64,000 nucleotides of DNA from Escherichia coli (GCF_003018235.1 NZ_CP027439.1); one strand, 5' to 3'; shown: positions 1 to 48,656, counted from the first letter of the stretch. The notes: generated by a model from the letters alone, not told the origin. Numbers and translations: made by a program.

Positions 1-1269
1 CGCCTGTATGCCGCGTCACGTCTTGACCCGGAGACGTATAAGAAAGTCCATGATGCCGGTTTCCGCTGGGCACCAAAACAGGCGCTGTTTGTCGCGCCAG
101 CTTGGACACCGGGCCGGGAAGATGTGCTCCTCTCACTTGCCGGAGAGATTGAGGATGAAGACAGCACACTCGCTGAACGTCAGGAAGCACGGGCGGAGCG
201 GTTTACTGGATACAGCGGAAAGCGGGCCAGTGAATCCGCACAGGCACTTGATGAAGTGGAAAGACTGGCCGCGATGATCCCGCCCGGTCAGCCCATTCTT
301 GTGGGGCATCACAGCGAACGCCGCGCCCGTCGTGATGCGCAGCGTATTGAAAACGGCATGAAACGTGCTGTGATGCTCTTTGAACGTGCAGAATACTGGG
401 AAGAGCGGGCGCGCTCGGCACTGCTTCACGCGAAGTATAAAGAACGTCCGGACGTTCGCTGGCGTCGTATCAAAAAAATCGAAGCTGATTTGCGCAAGTC
501 TGAAAAGACCATCGCGCAGTCGCAGAAATATCTGACGATGTGGCGGGCTGAATCGCTGGATCTGAATATGGCAAAACTCATCAGCAGTCATGACCATATC
601 AGCGCCTGTTTCCCGCTGGATACGTATCCGCGCCCGGCAGAAAAAAGCCAGTATGAAGGAAGTCGCTCGTTATGGTCGGCCCTGGATGATGACATCATCA
701 CCACGGAGCAGGCCCGTGAAATTGCGATCCGCTGTCATGAACGGCAGATTCAGCGTCAGCAACGCTGGGTTAACCACTATCAGAACCGCCTGATCTATGA
801 GCGTGCCATGCTGGACGAAAGCGGCGGCGTGGTTACCCGGACACAGGATTTTGAGCCGGGCGGACAGGTTTTCAGCCGGGGTGAGTGGCTGACCATCATC
901 CGCGTGAACAAAAGCAACGGGGCGGTGAGTTCAGTCACAACGCCAAATTACAGTTTTCTCGGGTACAGCGGCACGATGAAAGTGACGCCCGATCGCATCA
1001 CGGACTACAAAGCACCATCGGCAGAAGAGGCTGCCGTCGCCAGCCAGGCCGCGAAGCGTCCGCCGGTAGTCAACTATCCGGGGGAAGGTTTCCGGGAAAT
1101 GACAAAGGCACAGTGGGCCGCCCTGCCCCGGGACTGTAAGGCCGTGCGCAGTGTGGCAGAAGCAGAAGACCACGGGGCATACCGCTACCGCCGCACAATG
1201 GACAATAATTTCCGTCTGGTGAATGTGTATATCACCGACATGAAAATTACGGAAATCCCACAGAAATAA
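1..1269 (+). CDS. Leading-region protein of unknown function, 5' end lies outside the window
   Basis: Reading frame is open from window position 1 with no upstream stop; the listed 381-aa ORF 124..1269 is its C-terminal part. Sits upstream of the methyltransferase and ssb, as in F-like leading regions. Confidence 0.55.
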   Translation, partial: RLYAASRLDPETYKKVHDAGFRWAPKQALFVAPAWTPGREDVLLSLAGEIEDEDSTLAERQEARAERFTGYSGKRASESAQALDEVERLAAMIPPGQPILVGHHSERRARRDAQRIENGMKRAVMLFERAEYWEERARSALLHAKYKERPDVRWRRIKKIEADLRKSEKTIAQSQKYLTMWRAESLDLNMAKLISSHDHISACFPLDTYPRPAEKSQYEGSRSLWSALDDDIITTEQAREIAIRCHERQIQRQQRWVNHYQNRLIYERAMLDESGGVVTRTQDFEPGGQVFSRGEWLTIIRVNKSNGAVSSVTTPNYSFLGYSGTMKVTPDRITDYKAPSAEEAAVASQAAKRPPVVNYPGEGFREMTKAQWAALPRDCKAVRSVAEAEDHGAYRYRRTMDNNFRLVNVYITDMKITEIPQK

Positions 1270-1315
1270 GGTATATCCCCCCGGGAAATCCCCGGGGGAT
1301 GACGGAGATAATGAC

Positions 1316-1879
1316 ATGCACAGTCAGTTAAAAGAACGTATCCGGCTGATGCGCGCAAGGCTGGATAACGCCGCGCCGGTTGCTGAAATCCGGGCTGAAT
1401 CTCAGCTTTTTGTGACTCCTGCCCCGGTCTGTGATCGCCTGGTGACGCTGGCGGAGATCAGCAACCGTGATCACATTCTGGAACCCTCTGCCGGCACCGG
1501 GGCCATACTGCGGGCGATTCGGGATACCGCGCCGGGGGCCATGTGTGATGCGGTGGAAATCAACAGCGGGCTGGTCCGGTATCTGCGGGAAAATTTTAAC
1601 GGTGTCAGGGTTCAGTGTGGCGACTTCATGGAATGGCAGCCGGTGCAGTATTACAGCCGGGTTATCATGAATCCGCCGTTCAGCCACGGGCAGGATATCC
1701 GGCATATCCTGCGGGCCTTTTCCCTGTTGCGTCCGGGTGGCGTGCTGGTTGCCGTCTGTCTGAACGGGCCGCGCCAGCAGGAGAAGCTGTTACCGTTTTC
1801 TGACGTCCGCGAGGAGCTGCCACGCGGCACGTTTGCTTATACCGATGTTCCGACGATGATTATTCGTCTGCGTGCCTGA
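1316..1879 (+). CDS. Orphan DNA methyltransferase (N6-adenine type)
   Basis: 187-aa ORF with AdoMet-binding motif EPSAGTGA and catalytic NPPF motif; no adjacent restriction endonuclease gene. Confidence 0.75.
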   Translation: MHSQLKERIRLMRARLDNAAPVAEIRAESQLFVTPAPVCDRLVTLAEISNRDHILEPSAGTGAILRAIRDTAPGAMCDAVEINSGLVRYLRENFNGVRVQCGDFMEWQPVQYYSRVIMNPPFSHGQDIRHILRAFSLLRPGGVLVAVCLNGPRQQEKLLPFSDVREELPRGTFAYTDVPTMIIRLRA

Positions 1880-2060
1880 TGACTCCGGGCAGGCGGGAGG
1901 ACAAATGCCCGTCTGCCCGCGCCGGGAAAAGACCGCGCGCCGGTGGCGCTGAAAGGGGCCGCGCTCACGCGCCGCCCCTTACATTACGCGGACATTCTGC
2001 TGTGGGCTTCTGTCTTTTCAGACCTGTCATTTGTCTGTTACTGATGATGTTGTTGTTCCT

Positions 2061-2108
2061 GCTACTGCTACTGCTACTGCTACTGCTACTGCTACTGCTA
2101 CTGCTACT
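2061..2108. repeat. Hexanucleotide microsatellite (GCTACT)x8
   Basis: Eight perfect tandem copies read directly from the sequence; preceded by TGATGA/TGTTGT triplet repeats. Confidence 0.9.
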
Positions 2109-2109
2109 G

Positions 2110-2700
2110 TTCTTCTTTTTTCTGCTGTTCTGATTACTGCCTGTTTTGTTGTTCTCCTGCTTATGCCTTTTCCGGGCGTCCCCCTGGCGGGGCGGGCTGT
2201 CGTGAACGGAGCCAGCGAAGCTGTCTCCGCCCTGGCGGGCTTCCATCCCTGACGCGAAACCCCGGGCTTGCAGCGACCGTTCCGGTCGCGCCGCCTCTGT
2301 CGCGCCGTGGCCTGCGCTCCCGGCATCCCGGCAAAAGGCCGCCGGGATGTAAGGGGCAACGCCGTTTCGCAAACCGCGCTTCACGTCGTTGCGGCGGGTC
2401 CCTGTCCGTTGTTGTGTCCGGTGCCATTCACCTGTTTAAGCCCCTGTCGCCGGGGGCTGATACAGCCACAACCGTCTCCGCCAGTCCAGGGGTGAAATGT
2501 ACATCCCGCAAAACTTTTTGCCCAAAAGCAGGCAAAAACTTTTGCGGTCTGCCCCCGGACAGTCGTTTCCGGCCGTGGCAGTGATGCCCCTTGCGGCGAA
2601 GGTTCTCAAAAAGGTGATGGTGAATACCGGAGGGAACAAAAGGCAGGTCCCCGCAAAACGTCAAAACCGCGGCTCCCGAAACTCAAAAGATGATGGGGGC
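2110..2700 (+). promoter_or_regulatory. Frpo/ssi-like structured repeat, copy A (candidate single-strand promoter) upstream of ssb
   Basis: About 600 bp of GC-rich, hairpin-dense non-coding DNA ending just before the ssb RBS; paralogous to 7480..8125. Contains hairpin 2506..2547 (ccgcaaaactttttgcc/ggcaaaaacttttgcgg). Confidence 0.5.
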
Positions 2701-2728
2701 TGAAAACATCAACAGAAGGAGGCACATC

Positions 2729-3558
<830 letters not shown>

Positions 3559-3621
3559 GAGAGGTGCCGGACGGGAACGCGTCCGGCAGACATACAACCA
3601 TCCCGGTCAAAGGAGAAATAT

Positions 3622-5580
3622 ATGTCAGTTACAGAGTCTAAGACAAAAACGGAGCGTAAATCCAGCCGTAAACCTGCAAAAACGCAGGAAACAGTCCTGT
3701 CTGCCCTGCTGGCGCAGACGGAGGAAGTGAGCGTGCCGCTGGCCTCACTGATTAAATCACCGCTGAATGTGCGCACGGTGCCGTATTCTGCGGAGTCCGT
3801 CAGCGAACTGGCGGACTCCATTAAAGGCGTCGGCCTGTTACAGAATCTGGTTGTTCATGCCCTGCCAGGTGACCGTTACGGTGTCGCCGCAGGTGGTCGC
3901 CGACTGGCTGCACTCAACATGCTGGCAGAGCGTGGCATCATTCCGGCTGACTGGCCTGTCCGTGTGAAGGTCATTCCGCAGGAGCTGGCGACGGCGGCAT
4001 CAATGACTGAAAACGGTCATCGTCGGGATATGCACCCTGCTGAACAGATTGCCGGATTCCGCGCAATGGCGCAGGAAGGCAAAACACCTGCACAAATCGG
4101 TGATTTGCTGGGCTATTCACCCCGCCATGTCCAGCGAATGCTGAAACTGGCAGATCTTGCGCCTGTCATCCTCGATGCGCTGGCAGAAGACCGCATCACC
4201 ACCGAACACTGTCAGGCGCTGGCACTGGAGAACGACACCGCGCGTCAGGTGCAGGTGTTTGAAGCCGCCTGCCAGTCAGGATGGGGTGGAAAACCGGAAG
4301 TGCAGACCATTCGTCGTCTGGTGACCGAAAGTGAAGTGGCGGTGGCGGGGAACAGTAAATTCCGCTTCGTGGGGGCTGATGCCTTCTCGCCAGATGAACT
4401 GCGCACCGATTTGTTCAGCGACGACGAGGGTGGCTATGTGGACTGTGTTGCGCTCGATGTCGCCCTGCTGGAAAAACTCCAGGCTGTCGCAGAGTTCCTT
4501 CGGGAAGCCGAAGGCTGGGAATGGTGCGCCGGACGTATGGAGCCTGTTGGTGAGTGCCGTGAGGATGCCGGAACATACCGCTGTCTGCCGGAGCCGGAAG
4601 CGGTGCTGACGGAGGCGGAAGAAGAACGCCTGAACGAACTGATGGCACGTTACGACGCGCCGGAAAACCAGAGTGAGGAATCCGACCTGCTGGAAGCCGA
4701 AATGAAGCTGATGCGCTGCATGGCGAAGGTCAGGGCGTGGACGCCGGAGATGCGTGCCGGAAGTGGCGTGGTGGTGTCCTGGCGTTATGGCAACGTGTGT
4801 GTCCAGCGTGGTGTGCAGTTGCGCAGTGAGGATGATGTGGCTGATAACGATTACCGCACGGAACAGGTGCAGGAGAAAGCCTCAGTGGAGGAAATCAGTC
4901 TGCCGCTGCTGACGAAAATGTCCTCAGAGCGCACGCTGGCAGTCCAGGCGGCACTGATGCAGCAATCAGACAAATCCCTGGCACTTCTGGCATGGACACT
5001 CTGTCTGAATGTATTTGGCAGTGGAGCGTACAGCAATCCCGCCAGAATCCGCCTGGAATGTGAGCATTATTCGCTGACCAGCGATGCGCCGTCAGGGAAG
5101 GAAGGTGCCGCATTCATGGCGATGATGGCAGAAAAAGCCCGTCTTGCCGCCCTGCTGCCGGATGGATGGGCACGGGATATGACGACGTTCCTGTCACTCA
5201 GTCAGGAGGTGCTGTTATCACTGCTCAGTTTCTGCACCGCGTGCAGTATCCACGGTGTCCAGACCCGTGAGTATGGTCACACGTCACGCAGTCCGCTGGA
5301 TTCGCTGGAAAGCGCCATCGGCTTTCACATGCGCGACTGGTGGCAGCCGACAAAAGCAAACTTCTTCGGACACCTGAAAAAGCCGCAGATTATCGCAGCC
5401 CTGAATGAGGCAGGACTGTCCGGTGCTGCACGGGACGCGGAGAAGATGAAGAAAGGCGATGCGGCTGAACATGCAGAGTTCCACATGAAAGACAACCGCT
5501 GGGTGCCTGGCTGGATGTGTGCACCACGCCCACAGACGGATGCCACTGAACGCACCGATAACCTGGCTGATGCCGCCTGA
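3622..5580 (+). CDS. ParB-like nuclease-domain protein (leading region)
   Basis: 652-aa ORF whose N-terminal region has a ParB/Srx-like fold signature (LLQNLVVHALPGDRYGVAAGGRRLAALNM); RBS AAGGAG upstream. Confidence 0.7.
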   Translation: MSVTESKTKTERKSSRKPAKTQETVLSALLAQTEEVSVPLASLIKSPLNVRTVPYSAESVSELADSIKGVGLLQNLVVHALPGDRYGVAAGGRRLAALNMLAERGIIPADWPVRVKVIPQELATAASMTENGHRRDMHPAEQIAGFRAMAQEGKTPAQIGDLLGYSPRHVQRMLKLADLAPVILDALAEDRITTEHCQALALENDTARQVQVFEAACQSGWGGKPEVQTIRRLVTESEVAVAGNSKFRFVGADAFSPDELRTDLFSDDEGGYVDCVALDVALLEKLQAVAEFLREAEGWEWCAGRMEPVGECREDAGTYRCLPEPEAVLTEAEEERLNELMARYDAPENQSEESDLLEAEMKLMRCMAKVRAWTPEMRAGSGVVVSWRYGNVCVQRGVQLRSEDDVADNDYRTEQVQEKASVEEISLPLLTKMSSERTLAVQAALMQQSDKSLALLAWTLCLNVFGSGAYSNPARIRLECEHYSLTSDAPSGKEGAAFMAMMAEKARLAALLPDGWARDMTTFLSLSQEVLLSLLSFCTACSIHGVQTREYGHTSRSPLDSLESAIGFHMRDWWQPTKANFFGHLKKPQIIAALNEAGLSGAARDAEKMKKGDAAEHAEFHMKDNRWVPGWMCAPRPQTDATERTDNLADAA

Positions 5581-44569: not shown

Positions 44570-45160
44570 ATGAAGCTGATTATTTTTATTCTTATTGTTC
44601 TGATTATTGCAGCGTTACTTATCCGGATTATCCTCAGAAGTGTAAATCAGCATTCTCCTTTGCTGATGCAATTGCATGCGGCAGGTATACGGACCGGTGA
44701 TGCAGAGCGAATACTGTCCAGCGGTGAATACTGGCAACGTCAGAAGACGCTGCTGACAGAAAGGGAAGTCAGTTTTATGAAAGGACTGTTCAGAATTGTG
44801 GATATGAAGCGGTGGTATCTGTGTCCGCAGGTACGGGTCGCGGATATCGTCCAGCTGAACGGGAATATCCGGCCACGATCACGCCAGTGGTGGCAGTTAT
44901 TCAGGATGGTGTCTCAGTGGCATGTTGATGTGGTTATCGTTGAGCGGCGTTCGTTCAGTATTGTTGCAGCAGTAGAGCTGGATGATGCCAGCCATTTACG
45001 ACCGGAACGCAGACGCCGGGATATTCTTCTGGAAGAGGTTCTGAGGCAGGCTGGTATTCCGTTGCTCAGAAGCCACGATGCCAGAAAACTGCTGCAGATG
45101 ACCGGAGAATGGCTGAATACAACAGGGGCTGATCAGCAGTCACCGGAACATCGTAGCTGA
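44570..45160 (+). CDS. Hypothetical protein with N-terminal membrane anchor (possible nuclease-fold domain)
   Basis: 196 aa; MKLIIFILIVLIIAALLIRIIL anchor; no firm family assignment. Confidence 0.5.
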   Translation: MKLIIFILIVLIIAALLIRIILRSVNQHSPLLMQLHAAGIRTGDAERILSSGEYWQRQKTLLTEREVSFMKGLFRIVDMKRWYLCPQVRVADIVQLNGNIRPRSRQWWQLFRMVSQWHVDVVIVERRSFSIVAAVELDDASHLRPERRRRDILLEEVLRQAGIPLLRSHDARKLLQMTGEWLNTTGADQQSPEHRS

Positions 45161-45399
45161 CGCCTTCGCGTTGCTCAGTTGTCCAACCCCGGAAACGGGA
45201 AAAAGCAAGTTTTCCCCGCTCCCGGCGTTTCTATAACTGAAAACCATACTATTTCACAGTTTAAATCACATTAAACGACAGTAATCCCCGTTGATTTGTG
45301 CGCCAACACAGATCTTCGTCACAATTCTCAAGTCGCTGATTTCAAAAAACTGTAGTATCCTCTGCGAAACGATCCCTGTTTGAGTATTGAGGAGGCGAG

Positions 45400-45660
45400 A
45401 TGTCGCAGACAGAAAATGCAGTGACTTCCTCATTGAGTCAAAAGCGGTTTGTGCGCAGAGGTAAGCCTATGACTGACTCTGAGAAACAAATGGCCGCTGT
45501 TGCAAGAAAACGTCTTACACACAAAGAGATAAAAGTTTTTGTCAAAAATCCTCTGAAAGATCTCATGGTTGAGTACTGCGAGAGAGAGGGGATAACACAG
45601 GCTCAGTTCGTTGAGAAAATCATCAAAGATGAACTGCAGAGACTGGATATACTAAAGTAA
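45400..45660 (+). CDS. copB: Replication copy-number repressor CopB (RepA2)
   Basis: 86-aa protein [47 protein letters not shown], IncFII RepA2 family. Confidence 0.88.
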
Positions 45661-45764
45661 AGACTTTACTTTGTGGCGTAGCATGCTAGATTACTGATCG
45701 TTTAAGGAATTTTATGGCTGGCCACGCCATAAGGTGGCAGGGAACTGGTTCTGATGTGGATTTA

Positions 45765-45855
45765 CAGGAGCCAGAAAAGTGAAAACCCCGATAATCTTCT
45801 TTAACTTTGGCGAGTGAGAAAGATTATCGGGGCTAACAAGAAACTGCATAGAAGC
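45765..45855 (-). ncRNA. copA: CopA (inc) antisense RNA of the repA1 leader (approximate ends)
   Basis: Long imperfect hairpin 45786..45832 (ccccgataatctt...aagattatcgggg) with a loop containing GCGCCAAAG on the minus strand, matching the CopA/CopT stem-loop II arrangement between copB and tap. Confidence 0.5.
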
Positions 45856-45883
45856 TGTTGCTCTATGCGGGGAGTATAGTTAT

Positions 45884-45958
45884 ATGCCCGGAAAAGTTCA
45901 AGACTTCTTTCTGTGCTCACTCCTTCTGTGCAACATAAGTGCAGGATGGTGTGACTGA
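45884..45958 (+). CDS. tap: Leader peptide Tap (RepA6) translationally coupled to repA1
   Basis: 24-aa [27 protein letters not shown] ending at TGA 45956..45958, overlapping the repA1 GTG start at 45951. Confidence 0.7.
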
Positions 45959-46808
45959 TCTTCAACAAACGTATTACCGCCAGGTAAAGAACCCGAATCC
46001 GGTGTTCACTCCCCGTGAAGGTGCCGGAACGCTGAAGTTCTGCGAAAAACTGATGGAAAAGGCGGTGGGCTTCACCTCCCGTTTTGATTTCGCCATTCAT
46101 GTGGCGCATGCCCGTTCCCGTGGTCTGCGTCGGCGCATGCCACCGGTGCTGCGTCGACGGGCTATTGATGCGCTGCTGCAGGGGCTGTGTTTCCACTATG
46201 ACCCGCTGGCCAACCGCGTCCAGTGTTCCATCACCACACTGGCCATTGAGTGCGGACTGGCGACAGAGTCCGGTGCAGGAAAACTCTCCATCACCCGTGC
46301 CACCCGGGCCCTGACGTTCCTGTCAGAGCTGGGACTGATTACCTACCAGACGGAATATGACCCGCTTATCGGGTGCTACATTCCGACCGACATCACGTTC
46401 ACACCGGCTCTGTTTGCTGCCCTTGATGTGTCTGAGGATGCAGTGGCAGCTGCGCGCCGCAGTCGTGTTGAATGGGAAAACAAACAGCGCAAAAAGCAGG
46501 GGCTGGATACCCTGGGTATGGATGAGCTGATAGCGAAAGCCTGGCGTTTTGTGCGTGAGCGTTTCCGCAGTTACCAGACAGAGCTTAAGTCCCGTGGAAT
46601 AAAACGTGCCCGTGCGCGTCGTGATGCGAACAGGGAACGTCAGGATATCGTCACCCTGGTGAAACGGCAGCTGACGCGTGAAATCTCGGAAGGGCGCTTT
46701 ACTGCTAATGGTGAGACGGTAAAACGCGAAGTGGAGCGTCGTGTGAAGGAGCGCATGATTCTGTCACGTAACCGCAATTACAGCCGGCTGGCCACAGCTT
46801 CCCCCTGA
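45951..46808 (+). CDS. repA1: Replication initiator RepA1 (IncFII/RepFIIA)
   Basis: 285 aa from the GTG start: [89 protein letters not shown]. Confidence 0.93.
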
Positions 46809-46849
46809 ACCTGACCTCCTCTGAATAATCCGGCCTGCGCCGGAGGCTT

Positions 46850-47100
46850 CCGCACGTCTGAAGCCCGACAGCGCACAAAAAATCAGCACCACATACAAAA
46901 AACAACCTCATCATCCAGCTTCTGGTGCATCCGGCCCCCCCCCTGTTTTCGATACAAAACACGCCTCACAGACGGGGAATTTTGCTTATCCACATTAAAC
47001 TGCAAGGGACTTCCCCATAAGGTTACAACCGTTCATGTCATAAAGCGCCAGCCGCCAGTCTTACAGGGTGCAATGTATCTTTTAAACACCTGTTTATATC
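46850..47100. other. oriR region (vegetative origin) with DnaA box
   Basis: DnaA box TTATCCACA at 46986..46994 about 180 bp downstream of repA1; AT-rich stretch follows. Confidence 0.55.
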
Positions 47101-47216
47101 TCCTTTAAACTACTTAATTACATTCATTTAAAAAGAAAACCTGTTCACTGCCTGTCCTGTGGACAGACAGATATGCACCTCCCACCGCAAGCGGCGGGCC
47201 CCGACCGGAGCCATTT

Positions 47217-47235
47217 TAGTTACAACACTCAAATA
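47217..47235 (-). other. Ter (Tus-binding) site, minus orientation
   Basis: Reverse complement reads GAGTGTTGTAACTAAAATG, matching the Ter core GTTGTAACTA. Confidence 0.6.
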
Positions 47236-47346
47236 CAACCACCGGAAAAACCCCGGTCCCGCGCAGAACTGAAACCACAATGCCCCTCCTCATAACTGAA
47301 AAGCGCCGCCGCCCCCGCCCAAAGGGCGGGAACAACATCGCTTTTA

Positions 47347-47369
47347 ATTATGAATGTTGTAACTATACA
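47347..47369 (+). other. Ter (Tus-binding) site, plus orientation
   Basis: AATTATGAATGTTGTAACTATAC matches the Ter consensus; inverted relative to the site at 47217. Confidence 0.65.
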
Positions 47370-47407
47370 ACATCATTGCTGTCAGTATTCTGGCTGGAAG
47401 TCCTCAG

Positions 47408-47663
47408 TACACGCTCGTAAGCGGCCCTGACGGCCCGCTAACGCGGAGATACGCCCCAACTTCGGGTAAACCCTCGTCGGGACCACTCCGACAGCGCACA
47501 GAAGCTCTTTCATGGCTGAAAGCGGGTATAGTCTGGCAGGGCTGGGGATGGGTAAGGTGAAATCTATCAATCAGTACCGGCTTACGCCGGGCTTCGGCGG
47601 TTTTACTCCGGTATCACATGTAACCACAGCGTGCCGCCTTCCATGCCGCTGGCGCGGCATATC
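47408..47663 (+). repeat. Paralogous structured non-coding element, copy A (candidate sRNA or cis-regulatory RNA)
   Basis: About 80% identical to 48657..48907 (my estimate); conserved hairpins (gcggccctgacggcccgc; ccggc-ttac-gccgg; ggcttcggcgg followed by TTTT); no conserved reading frame. Confidence 0.6.
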
Positions 47664-47724
47664 CTGGTGACGATATCTGAATCGTTATATACTGCGTATA
47701 TATGTGGTAATGACGGGGTGATAA

Positions 47725-47994
47725 ATGGCACAGGTTAATATGAGTTTAAGAATTGACGCTGAACTGAAGGATGCTTTTATGGCCGCTGCAAAAAGCATGG
47801 ACCGTAATGGCTCTCAGTTAATCCGGGATTTTATGCGCCAGACCGTGGAACGGCAGCATAATACCTGGTTCCGTGACCAGGTTGCGGAAGGACGTCAGCA
47901 ACTCGAGCGCGGCGATGTGCTTCCCCATGACATGGTCGAATCTTCTGCTGCTGCATGGCGGGATGAAATGAGCAGGAAGGTTGCCGGTAAATGA
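47725..47994 (+). CDS. Ribbon-helix-helix antitoxin-like protein (RelB/DinJ/ParD-type)
   Basis: MAQVNMSLRIDAELKDAFMAAAKSMDRNGSQLIRDFMRQ matches the RHH pattern; putative -35/-10 and RBS at the 3' end of element A; stop overlaps the next ATG (ATGA). Confidence 0.7.
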   Translation: MAQVNMSLRIDAELKDAFMAAAKSMDRNGSQLIRDFMRQTVERQHNTWFRDQVAEGRQQLERGDVLPHDMVESSAAAWRDEMSRKVAGK

Positions 47995-48568
47995 TGGAGA
48001 TATTCTGGACCATGCTGGCCAGCCAGGCCGGACTGACTTGGGAAGGGCAGGCACACTCAGCGATCGCCGACGCACGGATGACGGCAGGTGTGGTAAACGC
48101 TATTGCTGCATATCATCTGGAACTACTGCAGGAACAGGCTCGGCTGAAAAACTTGAAAAGGATTATCTGGCTGAAGTGGCTAATTACAGTAACGACCGCT
48201 GGGAAGCACCGCAACGTGCCTCACGCCTGGCTGCCAGCGTAAAGCGTTACAAGACATCAGAAATGCTGCGCTTTATTCTTGCTACCATTGCCTACGATCC
48301 CGATCCAGATTTAACCCCGCTGACTGTGAGACGTTTGTGCAAGGCATTGTTCGGCAGAACCGGAAGCCAGTGGCTGGTTGTTGAAGTTTTTGGGGAGAAG
48401 GGGCGTCAGCACAGCAGCGCGGACAGTAATCCGGAGATGGTGGAAAAAATGGCTGCCAGATATCGTCACGCCGCCGAACTACACTGGTCCGCAACGCTGG
48501 CAGAAATTGAACGGGTAAAGCGGCTTTATCAGACGAAAATTAAGAAATCCAAAAAAGAAGTGGGTTGA
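47991..48568 (+). pseudogene. Decayed ORF coupled to the RHH gene; possible remnant of a DEDDh-type exonuclease or toxin
   Basis: ATG 47991 overlaps the RHH stop. Frame 0 (47991..48242) contains an Exo III-like motif HSAIADARMTAGVVNAIA; the coding-like signal continues in another frame (47981..48568), implying a frameshift near 48130. Confidence 0.3.
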
Positions 48569-48656
48569 CTGCCATTGTTATTCTTTTCCTTCATCATTAA
48601 TGCTAATGTATGGTGCGTTAAGCGTACAATAATTTCGAATATCCAAACTGATCTCA

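Follow-up and report, generated by a model that had tools for sequence, protein, structure and literature searches.

The locus at 47725-48568 of the 64-kb stretch of Escherichia coli DNA analyzed in this work (hereafter, the window) raises the question of what an antitoxin-like gene is doing next to a downstream reading frame that does not resemble any toxin. A sequence-only reading of the region had proposed three possible answers, that is, an orphan antitoxin beside a degraded gene, a frameshifted novel toxin, or a complete pair of genes masked by a sequencing error. The comparative analysis reported here points very strongly to one scenario, according to which the locus represents a decayed yacA-yacB-exonuclease-hypothetical gene module of IncF plasmids, from which two deletions between short repeats removed the toxin and most of the exonuclease, leaving yacA as an orphan.

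The plasmid context of the locus is quite clear. The genes surrounding it follow the order of an IncF backbone, i.e., traI, traX, finO, a DUF2726 gene, copB, the CopA RNA, repA, oriR, and then the yacA locus. The CopA RNA (45777-45866, minus strand; Rfam RF00042, 89.9 bits) and repA (45939-46808), both lying upstream of yacA, mark the replicon as IncFII. An Rfam scan of the region 45000-49500 retrieved no RNA other than CopA and related control RNAs of the IncFII type, and none of them falls inside 47725-48568. The module extending from yacA to the hypothetical gene is flanked on both sides by a repeat of about 260 bp on the plus strand, whose first copy (47403-47660) is located between oriR and yacA and whose second copy (48652-48904) borders the module on the right; the two copies share 78% identity in a self-BLAST comparison. 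Their alignment and consensus folding revealed conserved hairpins, three of which exhibit compensatory changes, and the “terminators” called by a consensus scan are actually hairpins within these repeats. On the basis of their position relative to oriR and of the conserved hairpins, the flanking repeats may be single-strand priming (G-site-like) elements; a distant BLAST search for priming signals of the G4-phage type, carried out with the first copy against 50,697 phage records, did not retrieve any match.

The 89-aa open reading frame at 47725-47994 (plus strand), which had been read as coding for an RHH-type protein, is indeed present and corresponds to an intact yacA, the antitoxin gene of the YacAB type II toxin-antitoxin (TA) system. 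Its product is 100% identical at the amino acid level to a RefSeq YacA (WP_048889353.1 from plasmid pSCU-111-1), the two genes differing by seven nucleotides, all of which are synonymous; the nucleotide identity to the yacA genes of seven other plasmids ranges from 95 to 98%. The assignment of an RHH fold to the YacA N-terminus finds moderate but consistent support in profile comparisons. The protein matched the NCBIfam RelB_DinJ model over residues 1-44 (E 1.9e-5, a match lying below the curated cut-off) and the Pfam models RHH_1 and RelB with E-values of about 0.02-0.04; its homologues (60-96% identity) matched RHH_9 (E 1.7e-7) and CcdA (E 2.4e-5), and the profile of the whole family matched the CopG-family RHH protein 6xrw_B of the PDB over residues 2-72 (E 0.0045). 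An AF2 model built on a 22-sequence alignment, whose pLDDT of 65 corresponds to low confidence, places a coil at residues 1-11, helices at 12-24 and 27-44, and two further helices at the C-terminus; in this low-confidence model of a monomer, the first two helices reproduce the RHH pattern. A Foldseek search of the model against the PDB returned zero matches.

The stop codon of yacA (TGA, 47992-47994) overlaps the ATG at 47991, as originally noticed, as well as a second ATG at 47994, the latter corresponding to the yacB start annotated in RefSeq. Upstream of yacA, at a distance of 22 bp, sequence inspection disclosed a 17-bp palindrome (TATATAC-TGC-GTATATA, 47686-47702) that overlaps a TATACT -10-like hexamer and is maintained in all seven aligned relatives. 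This palindrome is a candidate YacA operator, and the overlapping hexamer might serve as part of the promoter; a scan of the upstream region with a strict sigma-70 consensus did not detect any promoter.

What the complete module looks like can be learned from related plasmids. A megablast search of PLSDB using the region 47300-49000 as a query matched thousands of IncF plasmids, the best full-length match being pSCU-111-1 (NZ_CP051728), which covers the query in two pieces and spans 2711 bp where the window has 1701 bp. In both pSCU-111-1 and pO26-L (NC_011812), the RefSeq annotation shows, downstream of repA, the genes yacA, yacB, a 3'-5' exonuclease (282-311 aa), and a hypothetical protein (130-152 aa). 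The intact YacB exhibits a ParE/RelE fold: almost its entire length (residues 3-91 of 92) matched Pfam ParE_toxin with an E-value of 9.7e-17, the score against the NCBIfam RelE_StbE model (30.8 bits) exceeds the cut-off of 27.9, and the nearest solved chain is ParE2 of E. coli O157 (PDB 5cw7_B, E 6.8e-8). The intact exonuclease is a DEDDh/DnaQ-like enzyme (Pfam RNase_T, residues 106-262, E 4e-15; PADLOC DEDDh, E 2.9e-28) resembling the epsilon subunit of Pol III in a PDB search. YacA, YacB, and the hypothetical protein had no match in PADLOC, and in PHROG YacA and YacB matched functionally uncharacterized families. The hypothetical protein did not match any entry of Pfam, NCBIfam, PHROG, or the PDB either. 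Moreover, yacAB has already been treated as a TA locus of IncF/pINV plasmids (PMC5658099, PMC7354431, PMC9455713) and is carried by ColV/ColBM plasmids (PMC4707298); in the papers on yacAB that were consulted, we did not find any experimental demonstration of YacB toxicity.

The comparison with these relatives, which had been chosen beforehand as the analysis able to overturn the original interpretation, thus disclosed an intact and known TA pair, of which the window harbors a simply mutated copy. The yacB gene begins at its usual place, and the segment 47994-48027 (plus strand) contains codons 1-11 (MEIFWTMLASQ; 100% identity to YacB residues 1-11 in tblastn) plus one further base; then, at position 48027, the alignment of the window to the yacB genes of two relatives (L001 and L002) stops. 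This point, referred to as junction 1 (48019-48027), coincides with a single copy of the 9-bp direct repeat CCAGCCAGG, which overlaps a 10-bp palindrome, GCTGGCCAGC (48014-48023), and which occurs twice in the intact relatives, with a spacing of 1011 bp (positions 3717 and 4728 of pO26-L; positions 2067 and 3078 of pSCU-111-1). In the BLAST comparison with pSCU-111-1, window positions 47300-48027 correspond to 1349-2075 and window positions 48004-49000 to 3064-4059. Since 1011 bp equal 337 codons, the deletion is in frame, and it joins YacB residues 1-11 to the exonuclease from residue ~238 onward (AGLTWEGQAHSAIADARM...). What is left of the DEDDh 3'-5' exonuclease gene is a 3' remnant (48028-48140, plus strand) covering codons ~238-280 (a tblastn match to residues 238-281) and sharing 100% identity with the 3' end of the pSCU-111-1 gene and 96% with that of pO26-L. 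The Exo III-like motif pointed out in the original reading is a genuine H-x4-D motif (HSAIADARM...; the HSAIAD hexapeptide starts at 48054) located at the C-terminus of a plasmid-encoded exonuclease of the DEDDh/RNase T family. Both Exo I (DxE) and Exo II (D) are absent from the stub, which therefore cannot be an active nuclease. The statement that the downstream frame does not encode a RelE/ParE toxin also holds, the frame 47991-48242 containing just the first 11-12 codons of yacB. Hence, the ATGA coupling, the missing ParE/RelE similarity, and the lone Exo III motif are all explained by one 1011-bp in-frame deletion.

The frame change that had been perceived near 48130 is real as well, and it corresponds to a second deletion junction (junction 2, 48141-48150), where the window possesses one copy of the 10-bp direct repeat CGGCTGAAAA, present twice in pO26-L (positions 4850 and 5036, 186 bp apart). 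With these 186 bp, the exonuclease gene lost its stop codon and the hypothetical gene its ribosome binding site, its ATG, and codons 1-10, and a perfect palindrome lying between the two genes disappeared as well. As a consequence, the exonuclease frame enters the hypothetical gene out of frame and stops at 48242, giving rise to a chimeric 83-aa open reading frame (47991-48242, plus strand), in which yacB' is fused in frame to 'exo and the translation then continues within the hypothetical gene in a different frame from its own. The latter (48151-48568, plus strand) is devoid of its native start and comprises codons ~15-152 of the 152-aa pO26-L protein, whose residues 11-152 are found by tblastn in the window at 97% identity; for the corresponding gene of pSCU-111-1, RefSeq reports a GTG restart equivalent to window position 48177. 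A 195-aa open reading frame starting with TTG (47981-48568) was considered and rejected, the frame of the hypothetical gene being merely open upstream across the exonuclease stub. Junction 2 is shared by pSCU-111-1, whose exonuclease is otherwise intact (311 aa instead of 282), and by a plasmid of E. albertii 07-3866, so that it represents an inherited allele rather than an error.

At both junctions, the retention of one copy of the repeat is that of a slippage-type deletion relative to pO26-L and, for junction 1, also relative to pSCU-111-1. However, the identity between the window and pSCU-111-1 changes from 92-97% on the left of junction 1 to 99.4-100% on its right, and this step makes it possible that, instead of a simple intramolecular deletion, junction 1 may stem from an illegitimate recombination between two plasmids, or that one of the flanks may have been replaced afterwards.

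The erosion observed in the window is not an isolated case. Indeed, junction 1 is also found in pECC-1470_100 (NZ_CP010345) and in four other PLSDB plasmids, that is, in E. coli plasmids of ~100 kb, and the window-type arrangement occurs in 6 of the 2276 matching PLSDB records. Plasmids of the pECC-1470_100 type are already annotated in RefSeq as carrying yacA and an “incomplete” 3'-5' exonuclease pseudogene. They share with the window the very same fusion of yacB codon 11 to exonuclease codon 238 but differ from it in the flanking haplotype (95% identity in yacA and 94% in the exonuclease stub) and possess a second deletion of their own, running from exo nt 811 to the intergenic palindrome. 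The flanking SNPs of pECC-1470_100 and the window differ within 6-13 bp on both sides of junction 1; given these SNPs and the different second deletion, a recurrence at the same microhomology is likely, and the two junctions probably arose independently. A different fusion, joining yacB codon 44 to exonuclease codon 238, characterizes the plasmid of E. albertii 07-3866. In other relatives, the exonuclease gene was lost as a whole, in its 3' part, or in its middle, while yacB either underwent an 83-bp internal deletion or is cut at codon 42 and accompanied by a frameshifted yacA. Altogether, at least nine distinct microhomology junctions were recognized in eight sampled relatives, and the yacAB-exonuclease region is a deletion hot spot.

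A similar picture emerges from complete E. coli genomes, where yacA matched 1619 records in 1396 of the 5426 genomes, almost all of them plasmids. Of these records, 1402 contain yacA over at least 80% of its length and 1058 contain the yacAB operon at a single location with the same minimum coverage, these counts being approximate since they are based on BLAST coverage and an 80% threshold. Thus, about a quarter of the E. coli yacA records are devoid of a complete yacB, and, in a spread sample of yacA loci, many copies end at approximately yacB nt 110-126. The exact combination of junctions 1 and 2 was absent from all PLSDB and complete E. coli records.

This last finding is the only one that might speak in favor of an assembly or sequencing artefact, the source plasmid having in fact an intact yacAB-exonuclease module, an explanation that we regard as scarcely credible. 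Each of the two junctions is separately present in independent assemblies from different laboratories, and their recurrence in independent public plasmids implies that neither can be a sequencing error; moreover, repeats of 9 to 10 bp are far too short to cause an assembly collapse, and the lack of 1011 and 186 bp is unlike an indel-type error. The proposal of an intact pair concealed by a sequencing error must therefore be abandoned, as about 1 kb is missing from the locus. The proposal of a frameshifted novel toxin fares no better, since the reading frame consists of 11 codons of a known toxin and the C-terminus of a known exonuclease, and the apparent frameshift is the 186-bp deletion. In a broader form, one might imagine that the chimeric 83-aa product is a new functional protein, for instance a new toxin or a regulator neutralized by YacA, given that it retains the translational coupling of yacB to yacA and that the reading frame is preserved in each of the three independent yacB-exo fusions. 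However, the shared frame follows from the codon-level microhomology (GCC AGC CAG), the three fusions are unlike in length and tail, and the chimera embeds just 11 residues of the 92-residue ParE fold and ~25 residues of the RNase_T domain (157 residues in all), without the acidic residues of Exo I and Exo II; its tail results from reading another gene in the wrong frame, and no family match rises above noise. A function of this kind is thus extremely improbable.

A more serious alternative concerns the way in which yacB was interrupted. A tblastn search of YacB against the whole window retrieved the 11-residue remnant and a 22-residue fragment (55388-55453) only, with no intact yacB; at the DNA level, the fragment extends over 71 bp (55384-55454, plus strand) and corresponds to codons ~12-35. 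It lies 7.36 kb downstream of the remnant, past the tannase-idi-UbiX/UbiD-LysR-YhbP cargo. Because the fragment starts where the 5' remnant ends, we also asked whether an insertion or a template switch might have split yacB, the 7.36-kb segment 48028-55383 being placed between yacB nt 33 and 34. (This segment comprises the 3' end of the exonuclease gene, the hypothetical gene, the second flanking repeat, and the metabolic cargo.) The two pieces share the same orientation and abut within 0-2 bp (pSCU-111-1 position 2075 vs. 2074), and the identity step at junction 1 would fit a mosaic origin. Nevertheless, the junction between the cargo and yacB' is common to pSCU-111-1 and E. albertii pEA36_2 only, both of which keep an intact yacAB upstream. 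The identity of the fragment to the compared yacB alleles is 86-92%, reaching 93% with the best PLSDB allele, so that it diverges by at least 7% from every yacB allele of PLSDB; with respect to the pSCU-111-1 gene, synonymous and nonsynonymous codon differences are equally represented (three each), as expected for an old decaying relic. The exonuclease stub, by contrast, is 100% identical to the full-length gene. Furthermore, the same yacB site, inside the 10-bp palindrome, was used in pECC-1470_100 on a different haplotype, and a recombination hot spot would explain the coincidence. For these reasons, a split of yacB appears possible though rather unlikely, and the interpretation favored here is that the fragment derives from an older, separate event at a fragile site within the palindrome.

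According to the deletion scenario, then, a 1011-bp in-frame deletion between the copies of CCAGCCAGG would have joined codon 11 of yacB to codon ~238 of the exonuclease gene, and a 186-bp deletion between those of CGGCTGAAAA would have taken away the exonuclease stop codon together with the start of the hypothetical gene, both events being probably of the replication-slippage or illegitimate-recombination type. By analogy with type II TA biology and with ParD/ParE-like relatives, YacA dimers should control their own synthesis by contacting the palindrome with their RHH domain, and in intact systems the C-terminal helices of YacA should bind YacB. In the window, YacA would still be made from its own promoter, now free of the toxin and probably under a less tight repression, and the plasmid would no longer exert a YacB-dependent post-segregational killing. 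Since an identical YacA accompanies an intact YacB in pSCU-111-1, the orphan protein would nonetheless be able to neutralize the YacB encoded by other IncF plasmids.

A remaining issue is whether such an immunity is the reason for which yacA was maintained, that is, whether the orphan gene represents a selected anti-addiction module protecting the cell from YacB killing when an incompatible, yacAB-bearing IncF plasmid is displaced. Several observations might be read in this sense. The yacAB genes are found in ~26% of complete E. coli genomes and are almost always plasmid-borne, which implies a frequent exposure to foreign YacB; at least two, and probably three, independent deletions took yacB while yacA and its upstream region stayed intact, and roughly a quarter of the yacA-bearing records do not possess a full yacB. 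In addition to the identity of the window YacA to one that is paired with an intact toxin, 36 of 38 Shigella pINVs retain yacA as an orphan (PMC9455713), and the anti-addiction concept itself has been reviewed (PMC7354431). On the other hand, an antitoxin should outlive its toxin in any case, since cells that lose the antitoxin first die and those that lose the toxin pay no cost, so that an asymmetric loss does not require any selection. The exonuclease and the hypothetical genes decay too, the whole region resembling the outcome of neutral erosion; the arrangement of the window is rare among the matching PLSDB records; and at least one relative (L007) lost both genes, its yacA being frameshifted and its yacB truncated. 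In our opinion, a selected anti-addiction role is therefore unlikely, and any immunity conferred by YacA most likely arose incidentally when the toxin was lost. A more general version of the same idea, according to which the loss of yacB with the retention of yacA is a recurrent, selected outcome of the competition between IncF plasmids, having its hot spot at GCTGGCCAGC/CCAGCCAGG in codons 7-11, seems quite unlikely. If it were correct, YacA would render toxin-less plasmids immune to the addiction that incompatible competitors impose by means of YacB, and the window would represent one more independent instance.

From a practical viewpoint, these data suggest that yacA should be annotated as an orphan antitoxin, the frame 47991-48242 as a yacB'-'exonuclease fusion pseudogene, and the hypothetical gene as 5'-truncated, and that a functional YacAB addiction system should not be attributed to this plasmid. 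The erosion pattern might also be mildly useful to those working on TA decay and plasmid competition.

As a whole, the idea of an orphan antitoxin beside a degraded gene was right as far as structure is concerned, yacA being intact, yacB being reduced to 11 codons, and the exonuclease retaining its last ~45 native codons. Both the orphan YacA and the anti-addiction idea are already known from the literature. The locus resembles the yacAB of IncF plasmids in its place directly after the IncFII repA/oriR, in the YacA protein, in the upstream palindrome, and in the ATGA/TGATG coupling; the difference lies in yacB, which is cut to 11 codons, so that the copy harbored by the window cannot act as a TA pair. 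As regards solved structures, the closest relatives are PaaA2-ParE2 of E. coli O157 and ParD-ParE (PDB 5cw7/5cze, 6xrw), even though the sequence similarity is low; the C-terminus of YacA weakly resembles PaaA2 (E 0.28), which, unlike YacA, does not have an RHH domain. The similarity to the anti-addiction orphan antitoxins (PMC7354431) resides in the presence of an antitoxin gene without its toxin, which could neutralize a plasmid toxin of the same family; however, the classical cases involve chromosomal copies that counteract plasmid-borne systems, whereas the orphan described here is located on a plasmid and its neutralizing ability is predicted from sequence. A close parallel is offered by the Shigella flexneri pINV plasmid pWR100, where a 2-nt insertion shifts the frame of yacB and leaves YacA (Orf176) as an antitoxin without a partner (PMC5658099, PMC7354431). 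Both are IncF-type plasmids carrying an intact yacA beside an inactivated yacB, but the insertion of pWR100 leads to a premature stop, while in the window a 1011-bp deletion also swept away three quarters of the exonuclease gene. The toxin-less yacA locus thus belongs to a known system and shows a form of decay that is common for it.

A perfect 10-bp palindrome, GCTGGCCAGC (48014-48023), overlaps the 9-bp repeat kept at junction 1 (48019-48027), where a 1011-bp deletion joined codon 11 of yacB to the exonuclease remnant. This yacB site serves as a breakpoint in the window, in the related plasmid pECC-1470_100 and in a detached, decayed yacB fragment (71 bp, codons ~12-35) located at 55384-55454, 3' of the metabolic cargo; the first base of this fragment is the exact yacB nucleotide at which the 5' remnant stops (48027). 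The sharing of this breakpoint among the three suggests that the yacB site at 48014-48023 is a rearrangement hot spot. The junction between the cargo and the fragment is also found in pSCU-111-1, a relative with intact yacAB, and in E. albertii pEA36_2.

These two plasmids also share the plasmid-borne cargo itself (49272-55340), which may represent a phenolic-acid decarboxylation cluster. About 300 bp past the yacB fragment lies an IS3-family element with two ORFs (99 and 274 aa; 55761-56923), and its insertion may be what truncated the sequence that came next. The genes of the cargo encode a tannase/feruloyl esterase, Idi, a DUF554 protein, a UbiX prenyltransferase, a UbiD decarboxylase, a LysR regulator and YhbP; the tannase/feruloyl esterase is cut to 257 aa, its pEA36_2 counterpart being 584 aa long.

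In pO26-L, a perfect palindrome of ~35 bp, TTAATGCTAATGTATGCGTACATTAGCATTAA, is present on both sides of the hypothetical gene (4936-4970 and 5489-5525); in the window the upstream copy is gone, removed together with the sequence lost at junction 2 (a 186-bp deletion), and the downstream one is reduced to a single arm (~48594-48612).

The whole yacA-hypothetical gene module is flanked by two direct repeats of ~260 bp (47403-47660 and 48652-48904; 78% identity). Several of their hairpins are kept in eight copies from the six plasmids compared, with compensatory changes at three pairs. Compared with shuffled sequence, the minus strand gives the better fold (z -3.0). BLAST against phage records (G4) and an Rfam scan gave no match for these repeats. 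The presence of the CopA antisense RNA of the replication control region (45777-45866, minus strand; RF00042, 89.9 bits) confirms the replicon as IncFII, and copy 1 occupies the position expected for a primase G-site, downstream of the IncFII oriR.

A search of E. coli genomes revealed that yacA accompanied by a yacB cut at ~nt 110-126 occurs in a large fraction of the plasmids of this species, ColV-type ones included; therefore, the toxin-truncated yacAB seems not to be rare but to represent a lineage state with a wide distribution.
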